Positions 37,588-56,049 of a stretch of DNA of 64,000 nucleotides are shown here, piece after piece (positions within the stretch are counted from its first letter, which is position 1; the number at the start of each line of letters is the position of its first letter). Position numbers and translations under genes: made by a program. The notes below the pieces were generated by a model. The model was given only the letters and a program-made list of their open reading frames with translations, searched no databases and was not told the origin of the DNA. The DNA comes from Desulfobacterales bacterium (GTDB lineage Bacteria > Desulfobacterota > Desulfobacteria > Desulfobacterales > UBA5852): the NCBI GenBank assembly GCA_963674755.2, contig CAXXVS010000001.1, positions 736,001 to 800,000 on the forward strand. The letters are read 5' to 3'.

Positions 37588-37743
37588 GGCCTGCGGCTCC
37601 CCCCCCCCGCCTTGCCATCACCCGCCGCCGGAATCATGCATTGTCAAAATCAATCGCTACCCTCTGTTGGCATCGAATTTAAAAATTTGATCCAGCCCTC
37701 CAGGTTCTGTATTTAAGTCCATATATTGGTCATTTGCTCATTA

Positions 37744-37886
37744 GTGTCCATCCATAAATGGCATCTTTCGGCCCCTGGCGGCGTTCTCGCCTCCTGTCGG
37801 TCCTCGGCGTAGCCGGGCTACGCCTGCGGGCGTCCGTCGGCTGCGGCCTTGCCAGCAACCAAAATCTACCATTTATGGATGGACAC
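37744..37886. mobile_element. MITE, family B (intact copy)
   Basis: Perfect 18-bp terminal inverted repeat GTGTCCATCCATAAATGG; flanked by direct repeat TCATTA (37738-37743 and 37887-37892). Confidence 0.85.
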
Positions 37887-37947
37887 TCATTAAGAAAAAC
37901 TCCCCGGGCGGAGAGAATTGCCGTGGGAGACCTTGGGAGCGCCTTGC

Positions 37948-38151: not shown

Positions 38152-38187
38152 GTCAGCAGCGAATTTTCAGAGAGGAGGAGGGAGTTG

Positions 38188-39279
38188 ATGCAAGGGAAAA
38201 ACATTTTTGCGACACGCGGGGGTATCATCGGCGTGGGCGCCCTGATCGGTGTTCTGGCGCCTGTGCTGCAGAAACTCGGCAATCCCGGTAATATGGGGAT
38301 CTGCGTGGCCTGCTTCGAGCGGGACATTGCCGGTGCCGTGGGGCTCCACCGGGCGGCGGTGGTGCAGTACGTGCGCCCCGAGATCATCGGTTTCGTGCTC
38401 GGTGCGATGGCGGCCGCCTACCTTTTCAAAGAATTCCGGCCCCGGGTGGGCTCGGCCCCCATCGTGCGGTTTGTTCTGGGGGCCTTTGCCATGATCGGTG
38501 CCCTGGTTTTTCTGGGCTGCCCCTGGCGGGCCGTGCTGCGGCTGGCCGGTGGTGACGGCAATGCCATTGCAGGGATCTTGGGCCTGACCTTCGGCATCTG
38601 GATCGGTACCCTGTTTCTCAAAAAGGGCTACAACCTGGGGCGCACCCAGGCGACGCACGCCACGGTGGGGTGGATGCTGCCGCTGTTGATGGTGGGGCTG
38701 CTCGCCCTGATGGTTATGTTCCCCCAAGTCGAGGGGCAGGACAAAAGCGGGATTTTGTTCTATAGCCTCAAGGGGCCCGGCGCCATGCATGCCCCGCTGG
38801 TCGTCTCGCTGGTCGTGGGGCTGGGCATCGGTTTTCTGGCCCAGCGCAGCCGGTTCTGCACCATGGGCGCCATCCGGGACACGGTCCTCTTCGGTCAGAC
38901 CCATCTGCTGAGCGGTTTCATCAGTCTGGCCGTGGTGGCCTTTGTGACCAATCTTGTGCTCGGTCAATTCAACCCCGGATTTGCCGGGGAACCCGTGGCC
39001 CATACCATGCAGGTCTGGAATTTCGCAGGCATGGCCCTGGCCGGGTTGGCCTTCGCCCTGGCCGGCGGCTGTCCCGGGCGCCAGCTCTTTCTCTCCGGTG
39101 AGGGGGACGGTGATGCGGCCGTGTTTGTCCTGGGGATGATCGTCGGGGCGGGCTTTGCCCACAACTTCGGTCTGGCCAGTTCGCCCAAAGGGGTCGGTCC
39201 CCACGGCATTGCCGCGGTGGCCGTGGGGTTTGCGGTCTGTCTGTTCATCGGGTTCACCATGCGCCGCAAAGCGGTTTGA
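38188..39279 (+). CDS. yedE: YedE family putative selenium transporter
   Basis: GNPGNMGICVACFERDIAG, LGCPWR, RSRFCTMG, GGCPGRQL. Confidence 0.9.
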   Translation: MQGKNIFATRGGIIGVGALIGVLAPVLQKLGNPGNMGICVACFERDIAGAVGLHRAAVVQYVRPEIIGFVLGAMAAAYLFKEFRPRVGSAPIVRFVLGAFAMIGALVFLGCPWRAVLRLAGGDGNAIAGILGLTFGIWIGTLFLKKGYNLGRTQATHATVGWMLPLLMVGLLALMVMFPQVEGQDKSGILFYSLKGPGAMHAPLVVSLVVGLGIGFLAQRSRFCTMGAIRDTVLFGQTHLLSGFISLAVVAFVTNLVLGQFNPGFAGEPVAHTMQVWNFAGMALAGLAFALAGGCPGRQLFLSGEGDGDAAVFVLGMIVGAGFAHNFGLASSPKGVGPHGIAAVAVGFAVCLFIGFTMRRKAV

Positions 39280-39289
39280 GGAGGTCGCC

Positions 39290-39508
39290 ATGACAGCAAC
39301 AGTGGATGCACGGGGATTGTCCTGCCCCCAGCCGGTCATCATGACCCTGGATGAAATCAAGCAGGGGCAGGAAAATGAGATCATCGTTCTGGTGGATACG
39401 GATACGTCCAAGGAGAACGTCATACGGGCGGCCGAAAGCCAGGCCTGCCGGGTCACGGATGTGGCGCCGGAGGGCGAGGGCTATCGGATCACCCTCGCCA
39501 GGGGGTAG
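39290..39508 (+). CDS. TusA/SirA family sulfur/selenium carrier
   Basis: VDARGLSCPQPV; GGAGG RBS. Confidence 0.9.
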   Translation: MTATVDARGLSCPQPVIMTLDEIKQGQENEIIVLVDTDTSKENVIRAAESQACRVTDVAPEGEGYRITLARG

Positions 39509-39511
39509 CTG

Positions 39512-40057
39512 GTGTTCGGTTTCCGGAAAAAGAAGAACAAGGCCAGCCCGGACCATTCCCAGGCCGCGGTGAGTCGCGGCCTGCTGGTTTTCGAGAATAC
39601 GAGCGAGGTCATCCAGGCCGAAAACCTTCTCAAAAAGGCGGGCTGGTCGGTCAGTGTCATGGGCCCGCCCCCGGAGATTCGCACGGGCTGCGATCTGGTG
39701 ATCGTCTTTCCCCTCATGGAGGAGCTGCATATCCTGCGGGAGCTGCGCCGGAAAGCCCTTGAACCCCTGCAGGTGGTGCCGGTTTCGGCCCCCCTGCTGG
39801 CGCCGGTGGACTTGTTTCAAACCAAGGATTTCGGGGACTATCTGATGGTGCGTGCGGCCAACATGAAAATCACGATCGCCAAGGGCAGCCGGCAGATCGT
39901 CAACATCTCCGGGGGCGGCTGCCCGGACGTGCCTTATCTGGCCCAGGCCATGATCGGCCAATCCCTGGCGGCGGCGCCGCGCCCCCGGGACTTGGGGCAT
40001 ACCCTCTGCGGGTATGCCCTGGAGTTGGCCTACCAGGAATTGCTGCGGCAATGTTAG
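39512..40057 (+). CDS. DUF3343-like putative Se/S carrier protein
   Basis: F.NTSEVI.AE..L, PP.IRTGC; GGGCPDVP, TLCGY. Confidence 0.78.
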   Translation: MFGFRKKKNKASPDHSQAAVSRGLLVFENTSEVIQAENLLKKAGWSVSVMGPPPEIRTGCDLVIVFPLMEELHILRELRRKALEPLQVVPVSAPLLAPVDLFQTKDFGDYLMVRAANMKITIAKGSRQIVNISGGGCPDVPYLAQAMIGQSLAAAPRPRDLGHTLCGYALELAYQELLRQC

Positions 40058-40941
40058 GCATCGTCGGCACGGTTCCGGATCTGCAATTCCCGCTGGTCCA
40101 TGGCAAGGTCCGCTGGCAGGGCCGTCAGATCCGGATCGAGGGTCACACCATCCCGGTGAACCGGGGCACGCCGGCGCTTATCGCCGCTTCCTTAAGGGCC
40201 TGCGAATGTGCCGGCGGTCCGGAAGTCTACGCCTTCCTGGTGGGCGACACCGGTGTCGGCGAGGGCAGCCGCCGGTTGTATGATTTCCTGGCCAGGCATC
40301 TTCCCGAATTCGATTTACAGGTCTTGACCTTTCACTATCTGCAGCCGGATGTGGACTGGCACGGGCGGGTGCTGCCGGCCGTGCAGACCATGGCCCGGCG
40401 GCCGATCCTGATTGCCGATGCCGGCTTCATGTATGCCGCCAAAATGAGCGGCCAGGCCAGGCACTACGATTTCTTTACGCCGGATGTGGGCGAACTGGCC
40501 TTTCTGGCCGATGACCAGGCGCCCCATCCTTTTTACACCCGGGGTTTTATTCTGCACCAGGAGCACCAAGTGCCCGATCTTATCCGGCAGGCCTACGGAC
40601 ACGGCAATGCCGCCGCCTGCCTGGTGGTCAAAGGATCGACGGACTATATCGTCCATGATGGGAGCATCGCGGCCACCGTGGAGGCGCCCTCCTGCGACGC
40701 CATGGAAGCCATCGGCGGTACGGGCGACACCTTGACCGGCCTGTTGAGCGCTTTTTGCGGGGCGGGGTTCGATCGGATCGAGGCCGCGGTCCTGGCGGCC
40801 CGGGCCAATCGCTGGACCGGCGCTCTGGCCGACCCGACGCCCGCCACTCAGGTGCCGGAACTGATTGACAAGATTCCCGAGGCTGTGTCACATCTGCTGG
40901 ATCACAAGGATTACAGGAGCACACCGCATGGCGGAGCATGA
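40051..40941 (+). CDS. Ribokinase-fold (NAD(P)HX dehydratase/carbohydrate kinase-like) protein
   Basis: IADAG, TPD.GELAFL, VKG..D, GGTGDTLTG. Confidence 0.75.
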   Translation: MLGIVGTVPDLQFPLVHGKVRWQGRQIRIEGHTIPVNRGTPALIAASLRACECAGGPEVYAFLVGDTGVGEGSRRLYDFLARHLPEFDLQVLTFHYLQPDVDWHGRVLPAVQTMARRPILIADAGFMYAAKMSGQARHYDFFTPDVGELAFLADDQAPHPFYTRGFILHQEHQVPDLIRQAYGHGNAAACLVVKGSTDYIVHDGSIAATVEAPSCDAMEAIGGTGDTLTGLLSAFCGAGFDRIEAAVLAARANRWTGALADPTPATQVPELIDKIPEAVSHLLDHKDYRSTPHGGA

Positions 40942-41977
40942 ACCCATTCGCCTGACCCAAAGCGTGGCCGGGGCCGGCTGAGCGTCCAAACTGGCGCCAG
41001 GGGACCTGGACCGAGCACTTTGTGGCCTGACGTTTCCCACCGACGGGAACGTCCTGGTGGGGCTGGACCGGGCCGACGACGCCGGGGTCTACCAAGTCTC
41101 CGAAGAGCTGGCCCTTATCCAGACCGTGGACTTCTTCACGCCCATTGTGGATGATCCTTATATGTTCGGGCAGATCGCCGCGGCCAACGCCCTCAGCGAT
41201 GTCTACGCCATGGGGGGCGTGCCCAAAACCGCCATGAACCTGGTGGCCTTCCCGGCCAAAGACATGGATTTGAGTGTGCTGCGCGGGATCATCCAGGGCG
41301 GAATCGACAAGCTGGTGGAGGCCGAGGTCGTCCTCTTGGGCGGGCACAGCGTCGAGGACAAGGAGTTGAAGTACGGCTTGTCGGTGACGGGTTTTGTGCA
41401 CCCGGACCGGGTGCTCACCAAGCAGAATCTGCAGCCGGGCGACCGGCTGGTGCTCACCAAACCGCTGGGCACGGGCATCGTCAATACCGCGATCAAAGCG
41501 GGCATGGCCTCGCCGGCCCTCACGGAAACGGTGACCCGCCTGATGGCGGCCTTGAATCGCGAGGCCGCCCGTATTATGGCGCGTTTCGCGGTGAACGCCT
41601 GCACCGATGTGACCGGTTTCGGCCTGATGGGCCACCTGGCGGAAATGGTGGCCGGCTCGGGCTGGAGTGTGCGGATCCTGGCCGCACAAGTTCCGTTCAT
41701 CGAAGGGGCCCTGACCTTTGCGGAAATGGGCCTGATTCCGGCGGGTGCCTACCGGAACCGCGAGTTCCGGGCGGCCATGATCGCCGTCGCGGACGACGTA
41801 CCGCGGGGGCGGCAGGATTTTCTCTTCGACCCCCAGACCTCGGGCGGGCTGCTGATCAGCGTGAAGGGGAACCAGGCCGACACCCTTGTGAACGCCTTGC
41901 AGGCGGCCGGAATGGCCGAAGCCGCTCTCATCGGCGAGGTGCTCGACGCGCCGGACGAGAAGATCTATGTTGTCTAG
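40928..41977 (+). CDS. selD: Selenide, water dikinase SelD; selenoprotein with Sec at codon 18 (TGA 40979-40981)
   Basis: MAEHEPIRLTQSVAGAG-U-ASKLAPGDL in frame with DDAGVY, QTVDFFTP, ANALSDVYAMG, TDVTGFGL, DPQTSGGLL; AGGAG RBS. Confidence 0.95.
40982..41015 (+). promoter_or_regulatory. Putative bacterial SECIS element of selD
   Basis: CCAGG-GGA-CCTGG hairpin starting about 15 nt after the UGA, with a G-rich loop. Confidence 0.6.
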
Positions 41978-41987
41978 ACGCCACCAC

Positions 41988-42023
41988 ATGTCCATCCAGA
42001 AATGACATCTTTCGACCCCTGGC
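41988..42023. repeat. Truncated left end of a family B MITE
   Basis: TGTCCATCCAGAAATGACATCTTTCGACCCCTGGC vs TGTCCATCCATAAATGGCATCTTTCGGCCCCTGGC at 37745. Confidence 0.75.
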
Positions 42024-42377
42024 CCACCGCCGATGGACCGGGTCCCCGAATGGGGATAAATCAACTTGATCCCGCCCTGCCATCCCGCGCGGGAAACCAT
42101 CGATAGAAAATACCAATCGGGCGCTATTCGGCCATTTCTATTATCGATTTGACTTATCGCCTGTTTCCATCAAAGATACCGGCCACTATTTCCTCGAAGG
42201 GCCTTTCATGACGTACGTTTTCGGATTCACATGAGCGCCTCAGCCGCAAGCCAACCGTGTTTGTTCGGCAGGAATGTGAACTGAAATCGGCCAACCGCCG
42301 ACATCCTCTTCGTTGCATGTCATTCATGCGTCTTGGGCGCTGCGTCGCTTAAAGACCTATTTTTTCAGGAGGTGGGT

Positions 42378-43655
42378 ATGAGTGAAGACTATCGCGCCAT
42401 GTGGGAACAATTGGGGCTTGATCTCGAGGCCCATGACGGCCTGCTGGGGGTTTTAAACCAGGCCTATCAGGATATTTACCTGGCCCAGGCCGACCGGCCG
42501 GAAGGTATGGGCTATTTCGACTTTGTCATGAGCGAGGTGCATGGGCTGCGCATCAAGGAACTGCTGGATGAAAAGGCCGCGGGCCGCAAGATTATCGGCT
42601 CCTATTGTGTCTTCGTGCCCGAAGAGATCGTCCTGGCGGCCAATGCCACCCTGGTGGGCCTTTGTTCGGGAGCCGATTTCGCCATGGAAGAAGTGGAAAA
42701 GCTCCTGCCGCGCAATACCTGCGCTTTGATCAAGTCCTCCTTCGGTTTCAAACTGGGCAAGGTGTGTCCCTACCTGGAAAGCGCCGACATGATCGTGGGT
42801 GAGAACACCTGCGACGGAAAGAAAAAGGCCTATGAGTCCCTGGGACCGCTGGTTAACCAACTCTATGTAATGGATCTGCCCCAAGTGAAGTCCGATCAGG
42901 GGAAGGCCCTGCTGCGGGCCGAATACGACCGCTTCAAGACCGCGGTTGAACAATTGACCGGGGTGACGGTCACGGCCGAATCCCTGCGGGCCGGCATCGA
43001 GGCGGTCAATGCCAAACGGGCCGCCATGCACCGTCTGGCCGTCCTGCGCCAGGCCGATCCGGCGCCCATTTCCGGGCTGGATGCCCTCCTGGCCAACCAG
43101 GTCTTCTTCTATGACAATCCGGCCCGCTTCACCGCCTCGGTGAACAAGATCTGCGACGAACTGGAGCAGCGCATTGCGAACAAGGTGGGGGCTTTCAACG
43201 CCGGGACGCCGCGTGTGCTTGTCGCCGGCTGCCCCCAGGCGGTGCCCAACTGGAAGCTGCCCTGGATCATCGAAACCTCCGGGGCGGTGATCGTGGGTGA
43301 GGAATCCTGTGTGGGCGAACGGGGCACCCGCAACTTCACCAAGACGACGGGCGACACCGTCGAGGAAATGATGGCGGCCATCGTGGACCGCTATTTTGAG
43401 GTGGACTGCGCCATCTTCACCCCCAATCCCCAGCGCCTGACCCACATCGAGAATATGGTGGCCGACTACCGGGCCGACGGCGTGATTCATTACGGCCTCC
43501 AGTTCTGCCAGCCCTACCTCATGGAGTCGATGCCGGTGGAAAAGGCCTTGGAAGACAAGAATATTCCCTGCTTGAGAATCGAAACCGACTACAGCATGGA
43601 AGATGTGGGCCAGTTGAAGACCCGTATAGAAGCCTTTATCGAGCAGCTGCGCTAA
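42378..43655 (+). CDS. Double-cubane cluster-containing anaerobic reductase (HgdB/2-hydroxyacyl-CoA dehydratase family, DCCP-like)
   Basis: YCVFVPEE, GLCSG, NTCALIKS, CPY, TCDGKKK, GCP, EESC, DCAIF, QFC; RIETDYS; AGGAGG RBS. Confidence 0.85.
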   Translation: MSEDYRAMWEQLGLDLEAHDGLLGVLNQAYQDIYLAQADRPEGMGYFDFVMSEVHGLRIKELLDEKAAGRKIIGSYCVFVPEEIVLAANATLVGLCSGADFAMEEVEKLLPRNTCALIKSSFGFKLGKVCPYLESADMIVGENTCDGKKKAYESLGPLVNQLYVMDLPQVKSDQGKALLRAEYDRFKTAVEQLTGVTVTAESLRAGIEAVNAKRAAMHRLAVLRQADPAPISGLDALLANQVFFYDNPARFTASVNKICDELEQRIANKVGAFNAGTPRVLVAGCPQAVPNWKLPWIIETSGAVIVGEESCVGERGTRNFTKTTGDTVEEMMAAIVDRYFEVDCAIFTPNPQRLTHIENMVADYRADGVIHYGLQFCQPYLMESMPVEKALEDKNIPCLRIETDYSMEDVGQLKTRIEAFIEQLR

Positions 43656-43864
43656 CAGGCCGTGGATAAACGGCGCCTCAGACCAGAATGCGGCATTGTA
43701 CCGCGTTGCGGGAGTTCTTATCGGATCATTTGGGCTAGGGTGAGTCCCGTCCTCGCGAAACCGCCGCAGCAACCCTGATGGTTGCTGCGTATTTCGCATC
43801 GGGTGGCCGTCCTTTCACCCCGTTGGTTATACGCGATCTGTTAATGCGGCAGGGAAGGATTAAA

Positions 43865-44620
43865 ATGCGGTTTGCAGGTATCGATATCGGTTCGCGCGCC
43901 ATTAAACTGGCGGTGGTGGATGAAGCCGGCAAGGTACTGAAAAGGTCCCGCAGCGATACCGGGTTCGATCCCATGGCGGCGGCCGGGAAGTTGGTCGACG
44001 GAGTGGCTTTCGACCGCATCCTGGCGACGGGCTACGGCCGCAGCCTGTTCGAGATCGCCAGGGAAGCCCCCACGGTGACCGAGATCAAGGCCCATGCCAC
44101 AGGCGCCCGGGCCTGTTTCCCGGAAGCCCGGGCCGTGCTGGACATCGGCGGGCAGGACAGCAAGGCCATCGCCCTGTTCGAGAACGGGAAGGTAAAGAAA
44201 TTCGAGATGAACGACCGCTGTGCGGCCGGCACCGGCAAATTCCTCGAAATCATGGCCCGCACCCTTGGGTTCGGCATCGCGGATTTCGGGCGGGAGGCCC
44301 TGGCGGCCGACGAGGAGCTCAACATCTCCAGCATGTGCACGGTCTTTGCCGAATCCGAGGTCACTTCCCTGATCGCCAAGGGACAGAACCGGCGGGCCAT
44401 CGCCCGGGGCCTCCATGCCAGTGTCATCCGCCGGGCCGCGGGCATGATCAACCGGGTATCGTCAGAGGGCGCTATCGTGTTCACCGGCGGGGTGGCCCAA
44501 AATCCCTGCATGCGAAAGCTGCTGGCGGACAAATTGCACCGCAGGATCCTTGCACCGGACGACCCGCAGATGGTAGGGGCGTTAGGTGCGGCTTTGCTGG
44601 CCGCGGAAGCGGCTCCCTGA
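43865..44620 (+). CDS. ATP-dependent [4Fe-4S] activase (HgdC/DCCP-R type)
   Basis: GIDIGS, ATGYGR, DIGGQDSK, MNDRCAAGTG, SSMCTVFAESE, GGVA. Confidence 0.92.
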   Translation: MRFAGIDIGSRAIKLAVVDEAGKVLKRSRSDTGFDPMAAAGKLVDGVAFDRILATGYGRSLFEIAREAPTVTEIKAHATGARACFPEARAVLDIGGQDSKAIALFENGKVKKFEMNDRCAAGTGKFLEIMARTLGFGIADFGREALAADEELNISSMCTVFAESEVTSLIAKGQNRRAIARGLHASVIRRAAGMINRVSSEGAIVFTGGVAQNPCMRKLLADKLHRRILAPDDPQMVGALGAALLAAEAAP

Positions 44621-44668
44621 GCGACCGATAACGGCGGTTCAATCGTTTTATGACAGCGAGGTGGAATC

Positions 44669-45265
44669 ATGAAAGAAATCGACGCCCGCGGGCTGGCCTG
44701 TCCGGGGCCTGTGCTGCAAACCAAGGCGGCCCTGGATGAGGGCCAATTGCAGGGGGTGACCGTACTGGTGGACAATGCGGCCTCCCAGCAGAACGTGCAA
44801 CGTTTCCTGGAGTCCCAGGGCTTCGAGACCCGGATCGAGCAGGACGGTGAGGACTACCGGATCATCGGCAGCGGCGCGGCCGCGCCGGCCGACCAGCCTG
44901 AGCCCGGCCCCGCGCCCCAGACCGAAGCCAAGAAAATCATGGTGATGTGCGCCACCGACCGTATGGGGTTCGGGGACGACGAGCTGGGGTTGAAACTGAT
45001 GGTCAATTTTGTACGCACCCTGAAAGAAATGGGCCCCGAGCTCTGGCGGCTGGTTTTCGTGAACAATGGGGTCAAACTCGCCATCGATGGCTCCGCGGTG
45101 CTCGAAGATCTGCAGGCCTTTGAGGAAGACGGCCTGAAGATCTTGGTCTGCGGGACCTGTCTGGATCATTTCGCGCTGCTGGAACGCAAACAGGTGGGCG
45201 AGACCACCAACATGCTGGACATCGTCACGGCCATGCAGCTGGCCGACAAAGTGGTCAGCATCTGA
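44669..45265 (+). CDS. yedF: Selenium metabolism protein YedF (TusA plus DsrE domains)
   Basis: IDARGLACPGPV; G.GD.ELG..LM, NNGVKL, VCGTCLDH, GETTNM. Confidence 0.9.
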   Translation: MKEIDARGLACPGPVLQTKAALDEGQLQGVTVLVDNAASQQNVQRFLESQGFETRIEQDGEDYRIIGSGAAAPADQPEPGPAPQTEAKKIMVMCATDRMGFGDDELGLKLMVNFVRTLKEMGPELWRLVFVNNGVKLAIDGSAVLEDLQAFEEDGLKILVCGTCLDHFALLERKQVGETTNMLDIVTAMQLADKVVSI

Positions 45266-51857: not shown

Positions 51858-53333
51858 TCAGGATGATGTTTTGGCAGAGGTTACACGCCCCTTCCGTTTC
51901 CCCTGGCGCCAAACGGTGGCGTGGTCGTGATCCCGGAGACGAACGCCGTCCTCCTCCAGACGTCTTCGCAAGCGATCGGCCGTGCGCCAATCGCCGGCCT
52001 GCCGGGCCGACTGGCGACGGGCCACCAGGCGTTCGACAACCGGACGCGGGAGTTCAGGAGCGCAGGTGCTGGGGGGCAGACGGCGATAGCCCTCCAGCGG
52101 CGTCTGCAAGAGCCCGAGCACATGCCGCGTCAAGTAGATGAAATCGGTCGCCGTATCCGCCACCGTGCGCCGGAAGGTGTTGCAGCGCATCGGTCCCGCC
52201 GCATCCAGGGCCCGGTTGATTTCCCGCATGGTTTCGAAGACCACCGCCAGGCCACCGGGCACATTGTCGTCCAGGGCCAGTTGGCCGCTGAAGCGCTGCC
52301 AGAGACGGCTTCCACAGGGCACCGACGGATCGCATGCCCCCATCCAGGCCTGCAAGCGCCCCGCCAGGGTATAAAAACGGTCCAACTGACGTGCGGCTTG
52401 CCCCAGCGCGTTTGCGCTGAAGGGGAGATCGCGTCGATAATGGCGTGACAGGAGAAAAAGACGCACCGCCTCGGGATGATAAGCGGCCAGAAGATCTTCC
52501 AGCGGCGGGGCATTGCCTTTGGACTTGGCCATTTTGACGTGTCCCACCGTAACCATGCCGTGATGGAGCCAGATATCGGCCGGCGGTTGGCCGAAGGCGG
52601 CGCGGGATTGAAGGATTTCATTGGCGTGGTGGGGGAATCGCAGATCGCAGCCCCCGCCGTGGATGTCGAAGGGGATGTCCAGCAGGGTGTGGCTCATGGC
52701 CGTGCACTCGATGTGCCAGCCGGGGCGGCCCGGTCCCCAGGGGCTCTCCCAGAAGGGCTCCCCGTTCTGGCGCCCCTTCCAGAGGGCGAAGTCGTGCGGG
52801 TGACGTTTGTCCACGTCGACCGGCGGGCCGCTATTCACCGGACGGGCATCTGCTTCCGGTTGCCAGGCGATCGGGCCGGAGTCTCCAAGGCTGTGGGACG
52901 AAAAATAGATTGACCCGCCACGGCGGTAGGCATGGCCGCGCTGCAAGATGCGGGCGATGACCGCCTGGCAGGCGCCGACATAATCGGTTGCCCGGGGGGC
53001 GGCATGGGGCGGCCGTACGTTCAGGGCGGCCATGGCCGTGTCGTATTCGCGGCCATAGCGCTCGGCCACGCGGCGGTAGTCCTGGTCGCCCTCCCGGGCG
53101 CGCCGCAGAATCTTGTCGTCGATATCGGTGATATTGCGCACCAGGGTGACATCGTATCCGACGGCTTCCCAAAAGCGGCGGAAGACGTCGAAGATTACCG
53201 CCGAACGGGCGTGACCGAGGTGGGGTGCCGCATAGACCGTCGGTCCGCAGACATAGATCCCCAGATGCCGGGCTTTGCGGGGCCGCAGGTCCTCCATTTC
53301 CCGGGAGAAGGAATTATAGAACCGCAGGTTCAC
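51858..53333 (-). CDS. cysS: Cysteinyl-tRNA synthetase paralogue (CysRS*-type, divergent)
   Basis: YVCGPTVY, HLGH, NITDIDDKI, DFALWK, GRPGWHIEC, DIHGGG.DL.FPHH.NE, KMAKS; overlaps the selB stop. Confidence 0.92.
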   Translation of the reverse strand: MNLRFYNSFSREMEDLRPRKARHLGIYVCGPTVYAAPHLGHARSAVIFDVFRRFWEAVGYDVTLVRNITDIDDKILRRAREGDQDYRRVAERYGREYDTAMAALNVRPPHAAPRATDYVGACQAVIARILQRGHAYRRGGSIYFSSHSLGDSGPIAWQPEADARPVNSGPPVDVDKRHPHDFALWKGRQNGEPFWESPWGPGRPGWHIECTAMSHTLLDIPFDIHGGGCDLRFPHHANEILQSRAAFGQPPADIWLHHGMVTVGHVKMAKSKGNAPPLEDLLAAYHPEAVRLFLLSRHYRRDLPFSANALGQAARQLDRFYTLAGRLQAWMGACDPSVPCGSRLWQRFSGQLALDDNVPGGLAVVFETMREINRALDAAGPMRCNTFRRTVADTATDFIYLTRHVLGLLQTPLEGYRRLPPSTCAPELPRPVVERLVARRQSARQAGDWRTADRLRRRLEEDGVRLRDHDHATVWRQGKRKGRVTSAKTSS

Positions 53334-55254
53334 CGTTGGTCTTCTCCTTCAATACCCGTTCGTTGCCCTGACGGATGGTGAAGCCGACCTGGTCCAGATA
53401 TTCAAACACGGGCACCGCGCCCATACGGCCATATCCCAGCAGCCCTTTGCTATCGGCAAGACGAAGACCGCCCTGGTGGCGGATTTGATGCCGGATGCGC
53501 GCCTTGATCGTCTCCAGGGCGGCCGGCGTGAGAAACCGTCCGTTGTTCAGACGAATCATTTTCTGCTGGCGCACAAGATAGGAAAGGACCTTTTGCAGCT
53601 CGGCTTTGGCGATCGCCACGGTACACGCCCTGAGAAGGGTCGCTTCGCTGAACGGACAGAGGCCGATGCCCTCGGCGGCCGCCAGAGCGTGATCCAGGAG
53701 GTGGGTCCGGCGGGCGTCGGACACGGCCAGGGATGCAGTCAGACGGTAGTGGCCGTCGCTTTTTTCGAGCTTGCCGCTTCGCACCAGATCGGCAAGGAGG
53801 CTGCCCAGCAGCACGGGATCCATTCCGGGGGGCAGGCCGTCTTTGATTTCAGCGGCTGCCAGCCCCCGATGGAAGGGGTCTTGTTCCAGGGCGGAGGCGA
53901 CGTTGGCCAGGATGACGTCGCGATGACGGTCATAGTGATCCTTCCGGATGGCACCGTGGCCCTTAACGTAGACGAGATCGCCGCGATGGACCCGGGCATT
54001 GACTTCAGCCTCCAGAGGACCGCCGGGCAGGCCGGTGGCGTCGGCCAGATCCTGGGCGGACAGAAGACGATGCGCGTTTTTTTGCAAAAGAACATCGGCA
54101 CAGGCCGGGATATCACGCGCTTCCAGCGCCTCCAGAAAGGGAACGACGGCGTCGTGTTTGGCGGGCCGGTATTTCTGCCGTGTCCGTTCCAGCAGAATCC
54201 CGCCGCCCAAAACCTGGTTGCGGTTCAGGAGGGCGATGACGAAGGCCTCGCCTAAAGCAGCGTTCAACGGTTCGGCAAGACGAAACTGTACCAGACCCTT
54301 TTGACCTGCCCGCAGGTGCACCCGGCCCATCAGATGGGTCGTGGCCTGGTGAACGGCCGTGCCCACATAGAGTTTGACCCTTTGACCGTGCTTCAAAACG
54401 CCCTGGGGGGCGGATCGCATGCGCAGGGCGGCATTGTAGAGACGGCTGCCGGGGTGCGCGCCCGGAGAGGCCAGCAGCATGCCCCGGGCGATGGCGGCGA
54501 GCGGAATTTTGGGCAGGTTGATGCCCACCCGCTGGCCGCCTACCGCCGAGGTGACCCGGCCGCCGTGGCATTCCATGGAACGGACCCTGGCCGGGATCCC
54601 GGCGGGCAGGATTTCGAGTTCCTGGCCTTCATGAACGCCGCCCCCGGCCACGGTGCCGCTGACCACGGTACCGATCCCGGCCAGCTGCCGCACCTGATCG
54701 ATCCAGAGCCGGAAGGGGCCCGGATGAGAATCCCGGGGCAGGCGTGCGATTTCTTCCCTGAGGGCGTGGGTGATGATGTCGATGTCCGGAGGCTGGCGGT
54801 TCGAAAATGACAGCATCGGTTTGCCCGCGAGAAACGTCCCCTCAAGCAGGTCTTCCAGCTCAAGCTTGGCAATTTCGACGGTTTCCGGGTCCACTAGGTC
54901 GGTTTTGCTGAGGACGACCAGCCCGCCCCGGGTTCCGAAATACTGGAGAATGTCCAGGTGCTCCCGGGTCTGGGGCATGACCCCGTCATCGGCGGCGACC
55001 ACCAGCAGGGCCAGATCCACCCTGTGCAAGCCGCGGATGGCGTTTTTCAGAAAATCCACATGGCCCGGGACATCAACCAGGGCCAGGCCCACATCGGCGA
55101 AAACCGACCAGGCCGCGATGCCGGCTTCGATGGACAGGCCGCGGCGTTTCTCCTCCGGATTGCGGTCCGTATCGATGCCGGTAAGGTGTTTGACGAGGGT
55201 CGTTTTGCCGTGATCCACATGTCCGGCCACACCGATCGTAAGGTAGTGTCTCAT
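53314..55254 (-). CDS. selB: SelB-type elongation factor paralogue (SelB*)
   Basis: GHVDHGKT, DVPGH, DGVMPQTREH, SKTD, EF-Tu-like domains II/III, C-terminal winged helices ending EYLDQVGFT.R.GNERVL. Confidence 0.92.
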   Translation of the reverse strand: MRHYLTIGVAGHVDHGKTTLVKHLTGIDTDRNPEEKRRGLSIEAGIAAWSVFADVGLALVDVPGHVDFLKNAIRGLHRVDLALLVVAADDGVMPQTREHLDILQYFGTRGGLVVLSKTDLVDPETVEIAKLELEDLLEGTFLAGKPMLSFSNRQPPDIDIITHALREEIARLPRDSHPGPFRLWIDQVRQLAGIGTVVSGTVAGGGVHEGQELEILPAGIPARVRSMECHGGRVTSAVGGQRVGINLPKIPLAAIARGMLLASPGAHPGSRLYNAALRMRSAPQGVLKHGQRVKLYVGTAVHQATTHLMGRVHLRAGQKGLVQFRLAEPLNAALGEAFVIALLNRNQVLGGGILLERTRQKYRPAKHDAVVPFLEALEARDIPACADVLLQKNAHRLLSAQDLADATGLPGGPLEAEVNARVHRGDLVYVKGHGAIRKDHYDRHRDVILANVASALEQDPFHRGLAAAEIKDGLPPGMDPVLLGSLLADLVRSGKLEKSDGHYRLTASLAVSDARRTHLLDHALAAAEGIGLCPFSEATLLRACTVAIAKAELQKVLSYLVRQQKMIRLNNGRFLTPAALETIKARIRHQIRHQGGLRLADSKGLLGYGRMGAVPVFEYLDQVGFTIRQGNERVLKEKTNGEPAVL

Positions 55255-55273: not shown

Positions 55274-55365
55274 TGGAAGGGGCAAGGGGAATCGAACCTC
55301 CTCCTCGTTGTTCAGACGAGGCCGACGGTTTTGAAGACCGCGGGGTGCCCAGCACCATTGCCCCT
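55274..55365 (-). tRNA. selC: Non-canonical selC*-type tRNA, anticodon UCA, predicted Cys-accepting (8/4 fold)
   Basis: Acceptor AGGGGCAA/UUGCCCCU (8 bp, A1:U72), U73, encoded CCA; D arm GGUGC-UGG-GCACC; anticodon arm GCGGU-CUUCAAA-ACCGU; long variable arm CCUCGU/ACGAGG; T stem GG(A)GG/CCCC with bulged A, loop UUCGAUU. Confidence 0.88.
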
Positions 55366-55621
55366 TCAAGGGAAGATAAAAAGATGAGGACCGGCAGGGG
55401 GTGAATCTATACCCATATGCGGTGAAGCATCTTCCATACCGATCCGCACGCGCTACTCACACGGGAAGCGTAGGTGTGGGGCGCTCAGGTGAAGCCGGTA
55501 TGGAGATACATAAGATGCTCCGACGAGTGCAGACTATTTAGTATTAATCTAAACCCTCCACCTATGGTGGAGGCCCCGGAGAGGTTTTGCCGATCCAGGG
55601 TGGCTTTACATCAATGGGAGC

Positions 55622-55890
55622 CTTCATTTTCTTTCTCGTGAAAGAAAACGGAAGCAATCACGCCTCGGCGTGACAGGCTTCAAACGCCCGTGTCCCGCTT
55701 AACCCTGCGCGTCGTCGACACGGCCGGAGCGCGCGGAAACTCGCTTCGCTCAGACAGTCCGCGCGCTTTTATCCGGCCGCATCGCCGATGCTCGGCGCGG
55801 GACAAAGGGAAATTCAAAACCAAAACCTCAAAGACTGTTTTCAAGCCCCCTTCGGGGGGCTTCCTGAGGCCTCCCACTAGGCGGGAGGAT
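55622..55890. repeat. Structured intergenic repeat, family A (full-length copy)
   Basis: Shares a 50-nt identical block with 211-260; multiple hairpins. Confidence 0.85.
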
Positions 55891-55904
55891 AACCACCGTT
55901 GGCG

Positions 55905-56049
55905 GAAAGCGGCGTTTTCGCCTCCTGTCGGTCTTCGGCGCAGCCGGGCTGCGCCTGTGGGCACCCACAGTTGAAGAATCAATCAGATGGGAAGCCCAGC
56001 ACTGTGCGGCGGGACCAGAAACCAAAATCTGCCACTTCTGGATGGACAC
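55905..56049. mobile_element. Family B MITE-like copy lacking its left end
   Basis: GGCGTTTTCGCCTCCTGTCGGTCTTCGGCGCAGCCGGGCTGCGCCTG and ACCAAAATCT...GGATGGACAC match 37744-37886. Confidence 0.8.

Follow-up and report, generated by a model that had tools for sequence, protein, structure and literature searches.

Three genes stand in a row on the reverse strand of the DNA studied here, a 64,000-nucleotide stretch (the window) of a Desulfobacterales bacterium (GenBank assembly GCA_963674755.2, contig CAXXVS010000001.1, positions 736,001 to 800,000): selC*, which encodes a tRNA with a UCA anticodon; selB*, which encodes an elongation factor of the SelB family; and cysS*, which encodes a cysteinyl-tRNA synthetase (CysRS*). 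The cassette lies behind a short leader open reading frame (ORF) and beside a full canonical selenocysteine (Sec) system, as the same genome (G000, with contigs C1 to C3) also holds selA, selB, selC and two copies of selD. Its canonical selB, at C2:1902830, is 29% identical to selB*; the canonical selC lies at C2:1226048 and the second selD at C3:2083643, and a tRNA-Cys and two other cysS genes exist besides cysS*.

The selB* gene (53314..55254, minus strand) is an intact ORF of 646 amino acids (aa) that scores 279.5 bits against the TIGR00475 selB profile (cut-off 242.25), and its product can be aligned to the Aquifex, E. coli and Moorella SelB structures retrieved by a PDB sequence search. 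The motifs on which the first-pass annotation had relied (RRGLSIEAGIA, KNAIRGLHRVD, FRLWIDQVRQL, GGQRVG and GYGRMGAVPVFEYLD) are all encoded in this ORF, and the last winged helix is retained, as that annotation had stated, with GYGRMGAVPVFEYLD present and a Pfam SelB-wing_3 match at aa 591-635. Its proposal of a SelB paralogue that delivers Cys-tRNA is right in outline and already in print as SelB*: a selC*(tRNA-Cys, UCA)-selB*-cysS* cassette of Desulfobacterales was described by Mukai et al. 2017 (PMC5389517; this and most other papers cited by number are drawn on for the passages covered here) and reviewed in PMC7609411, and non-canonical SelB sequences were dealt with by Vargas-Rodriguez 2018 (tRNA-ReC; RNA Biol), according to PMC8124441. 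The window gene is an additional selB, present in a genome whose selABCD set is complete, lies directly 3' of an 8/4 selC* gene, and falls in a single SelB* branch with support 100 in a FastTree analysis of 50 SelB* and 52 canonical rows, in which published SelB* sequences do not appear by name. We regard its membership in the SelB* of the published cassette as practically certain. SelB of this type occurs in 46 of 401 genomes of the order (E<=1e-100). Between the window and genome G010, the one pair from which all our ratios of nonsynonymous to synonymous substitution rates (dN/dS) derive, selB* gives 0.29 overall and 0.17-0.43 by domain. A foreign island by GC content is ruled out (0.638 versus 0.621/0.634). 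In genome G004, both selB* and cysS* are frameshifted in the assembly.

The selC* tRNA (tRNA-Cys(UCA); 55274..55365, minus strand) ends 19 nt before the selB* start codon and has the marks of the Desulfobacterales type, namely U73, a UCA anticodon, an A1:U72 pair and a long variable arm, with an 8-bp acceptor stem in which 8 of 8 positions pair. In a by-eye comparison with the D. biacutus selC* of the PMC5389517 supplement, 90 of 92 nt are the same, and both differences fall in the variable loop. Such a tRNA accompanies 40 of 50 selB* loci; Desulfacinum infernum has a leader-preceded tRNA with a GCA anticodon. Twenty-two A1:U72/UCA selC* genes (L113, L114, L117-L119 and others) have no cysS* within ~3.5 kb downstream, and two genomes, G342 (L123) and G159 (L118/L127), carry two selC*-selB* copies, each with its own leader, one of the G342 copies having internal stops.

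The cysS* gene (51858..53333, minus strand) overlaps the end of selB* and encodes a second CysRS of 491 aa. It is an extra cysS downstream of selB* and beside an A1:U72/UCA tRNA, an identity shared by 12 of 12 tRNAs found beside cysS*. Its connective peptide 1 (CP1) is altered, with loss of the A-G-A-R type motif; this stretch is variable among CysRS*, and the likeness to the published PTVS form is loose. CysRS* was defined in print as lacking the anticodon-binding domain (PMC5389517), whereas the window protein keeps it (aa 431-476; 51906..52043, minus strand), with a Pfam CysS_C match of 26.6 bits (cut-off 23). In an alignment to 1LI5/1U0B, the residues corresponding to E. coli R423, R427, W432, D436, R439 and D451 are present, among them the R427, W432, D436 and R439 targeted for anticodon recognition in E. 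coli (PMC13449415), and the domain is under purifying selection (dN/dS 0.30). Judged by this domain, the window synthetase is a variant of the CysRS* clade and not CysRS* as defined.

This variant is not isolated. An adjacent cysS* is found at 14 of 51 selB* loci, one of them a duplicate, and of the 13 distinct genes, 3 keep the domain (the window, G010 and the frameshifted G004) and 10 end before it. A quick IQ-TREE analysis that excluded the domain and used 27 of 80 canonical rows unites CysRS* with (n=26) and without (n=23) the domain in one clade (support 98) with at least 2 changes of domain state. D451 occurs in 26/26 and R439 in 22/26 domain-bearing proteins, and since the class was defined by its R-R-W-D pattern, only these two counts are independent. 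A full-length PTVS variant of CysRS* charged the opal tRNA (PMC5389517), so retention of the domain need not impair function. The truncated CysRS* was inactive in E. coli according to the same paper, and full-length forms may be easier to express. We did not find a domain-bearing CysRS* in print within the text of PMC5389517 covered, the Figures S14/S15 of which may show such forms. The window CysRS* and its closest relatives (P0121-P0123, L111) read H-H-A-N-E for H-H-E-N-E and have lost the Y-G-x-L-S kept by other CysRS*, through further drift or specialisation. At L120 (G389), cysS* runs in frame into a double-cubane reductase (DCCP) gene to give one 885-codon ORF, either a fusion or a lost stop, and a cysteine synthase-CysRS fusion without its KMSKS motif lies at G000:C3:2618138-2620432.

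The amino-acid pocket of SelB* (I46/D186/Q187/R189/S199/R242, with R31, R74 and E228) was compared in the 117 of 120 close homologues that reach 620 aa and in 93 canonical SelB proteins. Position 46 is I/V in 117/117 homologues and F in 93/93 canonical proteins; position 187 is Q in 109/117 versus R in 91/93; position 189 is R/K in 115/117 versus F in 93/93; position 74 is R in 117/117 versus A in 88/93; and position 228 is E in 102/117 versus Q in 87/93. R242 (117/117 versus 88/93) and R31 (116/117 versus 91/93) are common to both groups. The changes are clade-wide, and none of the order's 22 canonical SelB proteins shares them, a sharing that the first-pass annotation had named as fatal to its claim. 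That annotation had rightly seen a remodelled pocket in positions 46 and 187; it missed 189 and did not weigh 74 or R31. The loss of an aromatic residue and an Arg is real, but the proposal that it causes Cys specificity oversimplifies: in Aquifex SelB, which is a true Sec factor, Ser occupies the R181 site, R198 compensates, and cysteine is bound via R198/R241 (PMC4605307), so Arg loss alone is no proof of Cys preference. The aromatic (Y42/F45) and basic (R181 or Aquifex R198) residues expected of a Sec pocket are replaced in the window protein (I46, Q187, S199), and R236/R241, D180/D185, R30 and the fourth winged-helix domain (WH4) of canonical SelB have their counterparts. The EF-Tu pocket consists of His67, Glu226, Asp227, Phe229, Thr239 and Asn285 (PMC4329189), which align to I46, D186, Q187, R189, S199 and R242, respectively. 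As R/K189 takes the place of Phe229, the pocket need not lose charge; with the new R/K189 and R74, it appears rewired, not simply stripped of Arg, and R189 is a possible substitute Arg.

R74 or the WH4 Y-G pair occurs in 42 of 138 representatives at the 50% level, and since 8 of these 42 retain the canonical F-D-R-F-T pocket, the R74 and WH4 changes may predate the pocket change. Deep SelB-like proteins such as P0268, P0271, P0277, P0278 and others combine R74 and a WH4 G-R with a canonical pocket and are possible intermediates.

SelB* very probably delivers the Cys-tRNA. It could instead be that canonical SelB or EF-Tu delivers Cys-tRNA(UCA) and that SelB* protects or stores it, as archaeal MM1309 does in binding and protecting Cys-tRNA (PMC4329189), or regulates. 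The published E. coli assay, in which the D. biacutus tRNA suppressed UGA, names no SelB* as a component, and selC* was reported in phyla without a described selB* (PMC5389517). SelB*, however, keeps its G motifs, a nearly invariant switch II His65 and an invariant WH4 R610/R628 across 50 aligned proteins, and WH4 is under purifying selection (dN/dS 0.43), all of which makes this alternative improbable.

WH4 also bears on which Sec insertion sequence (SECIS) hairpins SelB* reads. R610 and R628 are kept and R633 mostly so, and K611 and Y612 are replaced; the WH4 sequence is G-Y-G-R in the window and G-Y-G-R-(W/T/S/M)-G across SelB*, against G-x-S-R-K-Y in the order's canonical SelB. This difference, together with a loose sorting of the genome's coding hairpins into GGUC and UGGA loops, would suit a private SECIS class and hence a gene-specific UGA=Cys beside Sec, much as the first-pass annotation had supposed that the altered RK motif (GRM) selects a subset of SECIS elements. 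The hairpins themselves lend this no support. A single type of selD hairpin is shared by 20 genomes lacking SelB* and 21 rows that have it (lacking meaning not found in homologue searches, where assembly gaps could hide copies), the mvhD hairpin is identical in 5/5 same-genus genomes, 2 of them without SelB*, and UGA-bearing MvhD and rhodanese genes occur both with and without SelB*. The E. coli SelB site, G-V-G-R-K-L, itself departs from S-R-K-Y. A private SECIS class was not found in selD and mvhD at the level of sequence, and we hold it to be very unlikely. The selD cluster as a SelB*-specific target is ruled out, as it is present and syntenic in the cassette-free G001 and G005. Our reading of WH4 rests on conservation because the literature search found no paper with its SECIS contact residues.

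The leader ORF (M-Y-L-H-T-G-F-T-UGA; 55485..55511, minus strand) lies 119 nt upstream of selC*, ends in a UGA at 55487-55485 and has a Shine-Dalgarno (SD)-like GGAG at 55521-55518. It is followed on the same strand by a SECIS-like hairpin (55451..55470; +15..+34 counted from the leader UGA, the G conserved in the family standing at +23), which is weak here; by an anti-leader segment (55428..55445) that pairs with the leader codons in a duplex of -21.0 kcal/mol; and by a C-rich, G-poor tract (55366..55424; C20/G9), which may serve Rho as a loading site and the anti-leader as an alternative partner. Among 40 regions upstream of selC*, taken without selection for the motif, ATG, seven codons and TGA occur in 23, compared with 1-5 for other spacings, and with a G-loop hairpin at SECIS distance in 20, compared with 0-2. 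When longer leaders and 450 nt are allowed, a leader precedes 28/40 selC* genes, that of Desulfacinum infernum among them; for L150, the true match is the one from the fixed-spacing comparison. The strict motif is found at 70 places in 63/401 genomes (reversed control, 0). The window holds two matches to the leader, with 0.00 expected in shuffles. Spurious matches (L124 MPIRRGSS, L158 MQRGPGFH and a weak one at G000 C1:72942) were dropped before the 28/40 count and the comparisons of hairpins, pairing and tracts given below. The UGA was part of the search patterns, and its invariance is not independent evidence. The G-F-T codons vary synonymously, and an SD-like site is present in 35/37 non-redundant leaders.

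The leader thus has two hallmarks of an attenuator, a short conserved ORF with a ribosome-binding site and leader codons that pair with a downstream segment. The window duplex is equalled by 0/100 shuffles and is better than all 36 cross-pairs, and each leader pairs better with its own anti-leader than with others in 35/37 non-redundant copies. Across 50 aligned copies, the stem of the leader family shows two-sided changes in 8/11 named pairs, above all slid controls, and 85% of cells are paired versus 31-60% when slid; as the structure was read off the same, related sequences, this covariation is support and not proof, and RNAalifold recovers only 3 hairpin pairs. The window leader region as a whole folds with z -2.86. 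C exceeds G in the tract of 34/37 leaders, compared with 47% of 2804 intergenic controls. The stretch from leader to tRNA contains no called intrinsic terminator, and Rfam searches of the element, with E up to 10, yielded nothing beyond chance hits. Among the literature matches listed, no title or abstract describes such a leader, part of which Vargas-Rodriguez 2018 could hold, and the strings 'leader' and 'attenuat' are absent from a 2026 selenoproteome review (PMC13188914) and from the Mukai supplement text. The leader and the domain-bearing CysRS* are the two additions that we did not find in print.

The leader also stands before other genes. A second copy in the window (M-T-Y-V-F-G-F-T-UGA; 42208..42234, plus strand) lies 146 nt before the DCCP gene, within a selenium cluster (38185..45265, plus strand) of yedE, a Se/S carrier, a YjeF-like gene, selD (in-frame UGA at 40979), DCCP, an activase and yedF. 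Links to selenium use have been described for yedE, yedF, DUF3343 and a dehydratase/activase pair (PMC5322559). DCCP lies within the fetched selB* flanks at 19/51 loci and is absent from the same spot in G001, G005 and G010. Across the order, the leader precedes selC*-selB*, selD, yedE, DCCP with its activase, genes for a PstS-like binding protein, MauE-family, HdrA-like and HdrD-like proteins, and one unnamed family. The HdrD-like genes behind it carry Cys in 4/4 cases checked, where the window genome's two copies carry UGA, which fits a switch that is on when selenium is short. The unnamed family (L244-L250, e.g., L245:1801-2289) is an ORF of 160-180 codons from one genome family, with no Pfam/NCBIfam match, and is a possible unknown member of a selenium regulon.

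Could the leader UGA be an ordinary stop? The leader would then sense Phe-tRNA, release factor 2 or general stalling, or act with the opposite polarity, and the cassette would still be selC*-selB*-cysS*. Phe occupies codons 4, 5 and 7 in 21, 29 and 37 of 37 leaders, respectively, the length of read-through past the UGA is not conserved (2-96 codons), and in many copies the hairpin loop differs from the genome's coding SECIS loops. The window leader, on the other hand, has only one Phe, the GG/G-loop hairpin sits at SECIS distance at the frequency given above and has a covarying stem, and the nameable downstream genes are selenium-linked, PstS-like, MauE-family, HdrA-like or Cys isoforms, with no Phe genes among them. 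We consider an ordinary stop unlikely and judge that the leader quite probably senses Sec and is on under selenium shortage.

We read the cassette, with a probability of about 0.6, as a UGA-to-Cys backup that is inducible through a leader sensing Sec-tRNA. In this model, selC*, selB* and cysS* would be co-transcribed, and CysRS* would charge the A1:U72/U73/UCA tRNA with Cys, a reaction published for the 90/92-identical tRNA (PMC5389517). SelB* would carry the Cys-tRNA(UCA), its rewired pocket (Arg moved from 187 to 189, the aromatic stack lost, an EF-Tu-like E228) plausibly making a selenolate less necessary, and its retained WH4 would recognise the SECIS hairpins that canonical SelB reads, so that selenoproteins such as SelD, FdhA, MvhD and the HdrD-like proteins may be made with Cys. 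When Sec is available, the ribosome would pass the leader UGA and leave, the leader and anti-leader would pair, the C-rich tract would be exposed and transcription would stop; without Sec, the ribosome would wait at the UGA after G-F-T, mask the leader and allow the cassette to be read. That Rho brings about the stop is a tentative proposal, and like arrest by G-F-T it is inferred from analogy to tnaC.

Gene order, tRNA identity elements, purifying selection and the single SelB* clade support the backup. Several observations weigh against it. No leader was found within 450 nt of 12/40 selC* genes, and 2 of the 28 leaders (L125, L141) are weak; part of the conservation among leaders picked by motif follows from the picking itself, and related genomes do not count as independent. 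The 48-nt hairpin piece of the window folds no better than shuffles (z 0.69), the alternative pairing is not significant in the window (24/100 shuffles) and only modest overall (better than the shuffle mean in 24/37 leaders), and the variable read-through and the E. coli UGA test described above count here, too. Two near-complete same-genus genomes, syntenic on both sides, lack the cassette, and in the single pair compared, the dN/dS of selB* (0.29) and cysS* (0.25) exceeds that of the neighbours (0.08-0.21).

The UGA genes that such a backup might serve were surveyed in part, as de novo scans for UGA read-through are noisy. In G000, an in-frame UGA with a G-loop hairpin occurs at C1:406711, C3:276393, C1:633901, C2:2575734, C2:1392529, C2:1425126, C3:1298454, C3:1038636, C3:693668, C3:1218865 and C1:957191. 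We take the candidate selenoproteins, mostly from their motifs, to be two FdhA, two HesB-like and two HdrD-like proteins, MvhD, an Ogt-like and an HMA-like protein, a multiheme cytochrome and one unknown; a PF01521 profile search found nothing. Elsewhere in the window, palindrome-rich intergenic stretches at 55680-55982 and 37740-37890 resemble repeated elements.

Taken alone, the gene adds a member to a known system; the tie of that system to selenium shortage comes from the pocket, from the CysRS* that keeps its domain and most of all from the leader. We rate at slightly better than even the wider idea that a ribosome-based Sec gauge, made of the G-F-T-UGA leader and the SECIS-like hairpin, controls a selenium-shortage regulon of Desulfobacterales. 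A complete alternative decoder, made up of tRNA, elongation factor and synthetase, would belong to this regulon, so that feedback would switch the meaning of UGA itself from Sec to Cys. Were SelB* to read the leader hairpin as well, the backup would hold down its own expression; were the hairpin ignored by the changed WH4 of SelB*, the gauge would remain specific to Sec. How tRNA-Sec and tRNA-ReC/selC* share their work was called unclear by a 2026 paper (PMC13582414), and a UGA leader before selC*-selB* would, if the model is true, answer this by making the Cys system an inducible fallback and the leader a natural sensor of Sec-tRNA supply. Residues 46, 74, 187, 189 and 228 are named targets for work on how an elongation factor distinguishes Cys and Sec.

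Set against known systems, the cassette shares with that of Mukai et al. (PMC5389517) its gene order, the selB*-cysS* overlap, A1:U72, U73, UCA and the 8-bp acceptor stem, the altered CP1, coexistence with selABCD and the SelB* clade; it differs in the anticodon-binding domain described there as absent, and in the leader and pocket residues, not mentioned in the main or supplement text covered. SelB* has the domain layout of canonical SelB (Aquifex 4ZU9, PMC4605307; E. coli 5LZB; Moorella WH3-4 1WSU) and matches it at R31 (Aquifex R30), D186-R242 (D185-R241), H230 (H229) and WH4 R610, R628 and R633, but departs by F45>I, R181-type Arg>Q, F>R at 189, A>R at 74, Q>E at 228 and S-R-K-Y to G-R-M-G in WH4. 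Archaeal MM1309 is likewise a SelB-like GTPase linked to Cys-tRNA, but with 350 aa it is too short for four winged-helix domains, and no dedicated opal tRNA is described in the passages of PMC4329189 covered.

The leader, in turn, has its closest parallels in peptide attenuators. These come in a trpL/pheL type and a tnaC type, the latter with Rho. The window leader resembles them in its short ORF with an SD, in leader codons that pair downstream and in a downstream pyrimidine-rich tract. Unlike in trpL, pheL and tnaC, control appears to lie in a terminal UGA codon accompanied by a SECIS-like hairpin, and the signal would therefore be Sec-tRNA/SelB.

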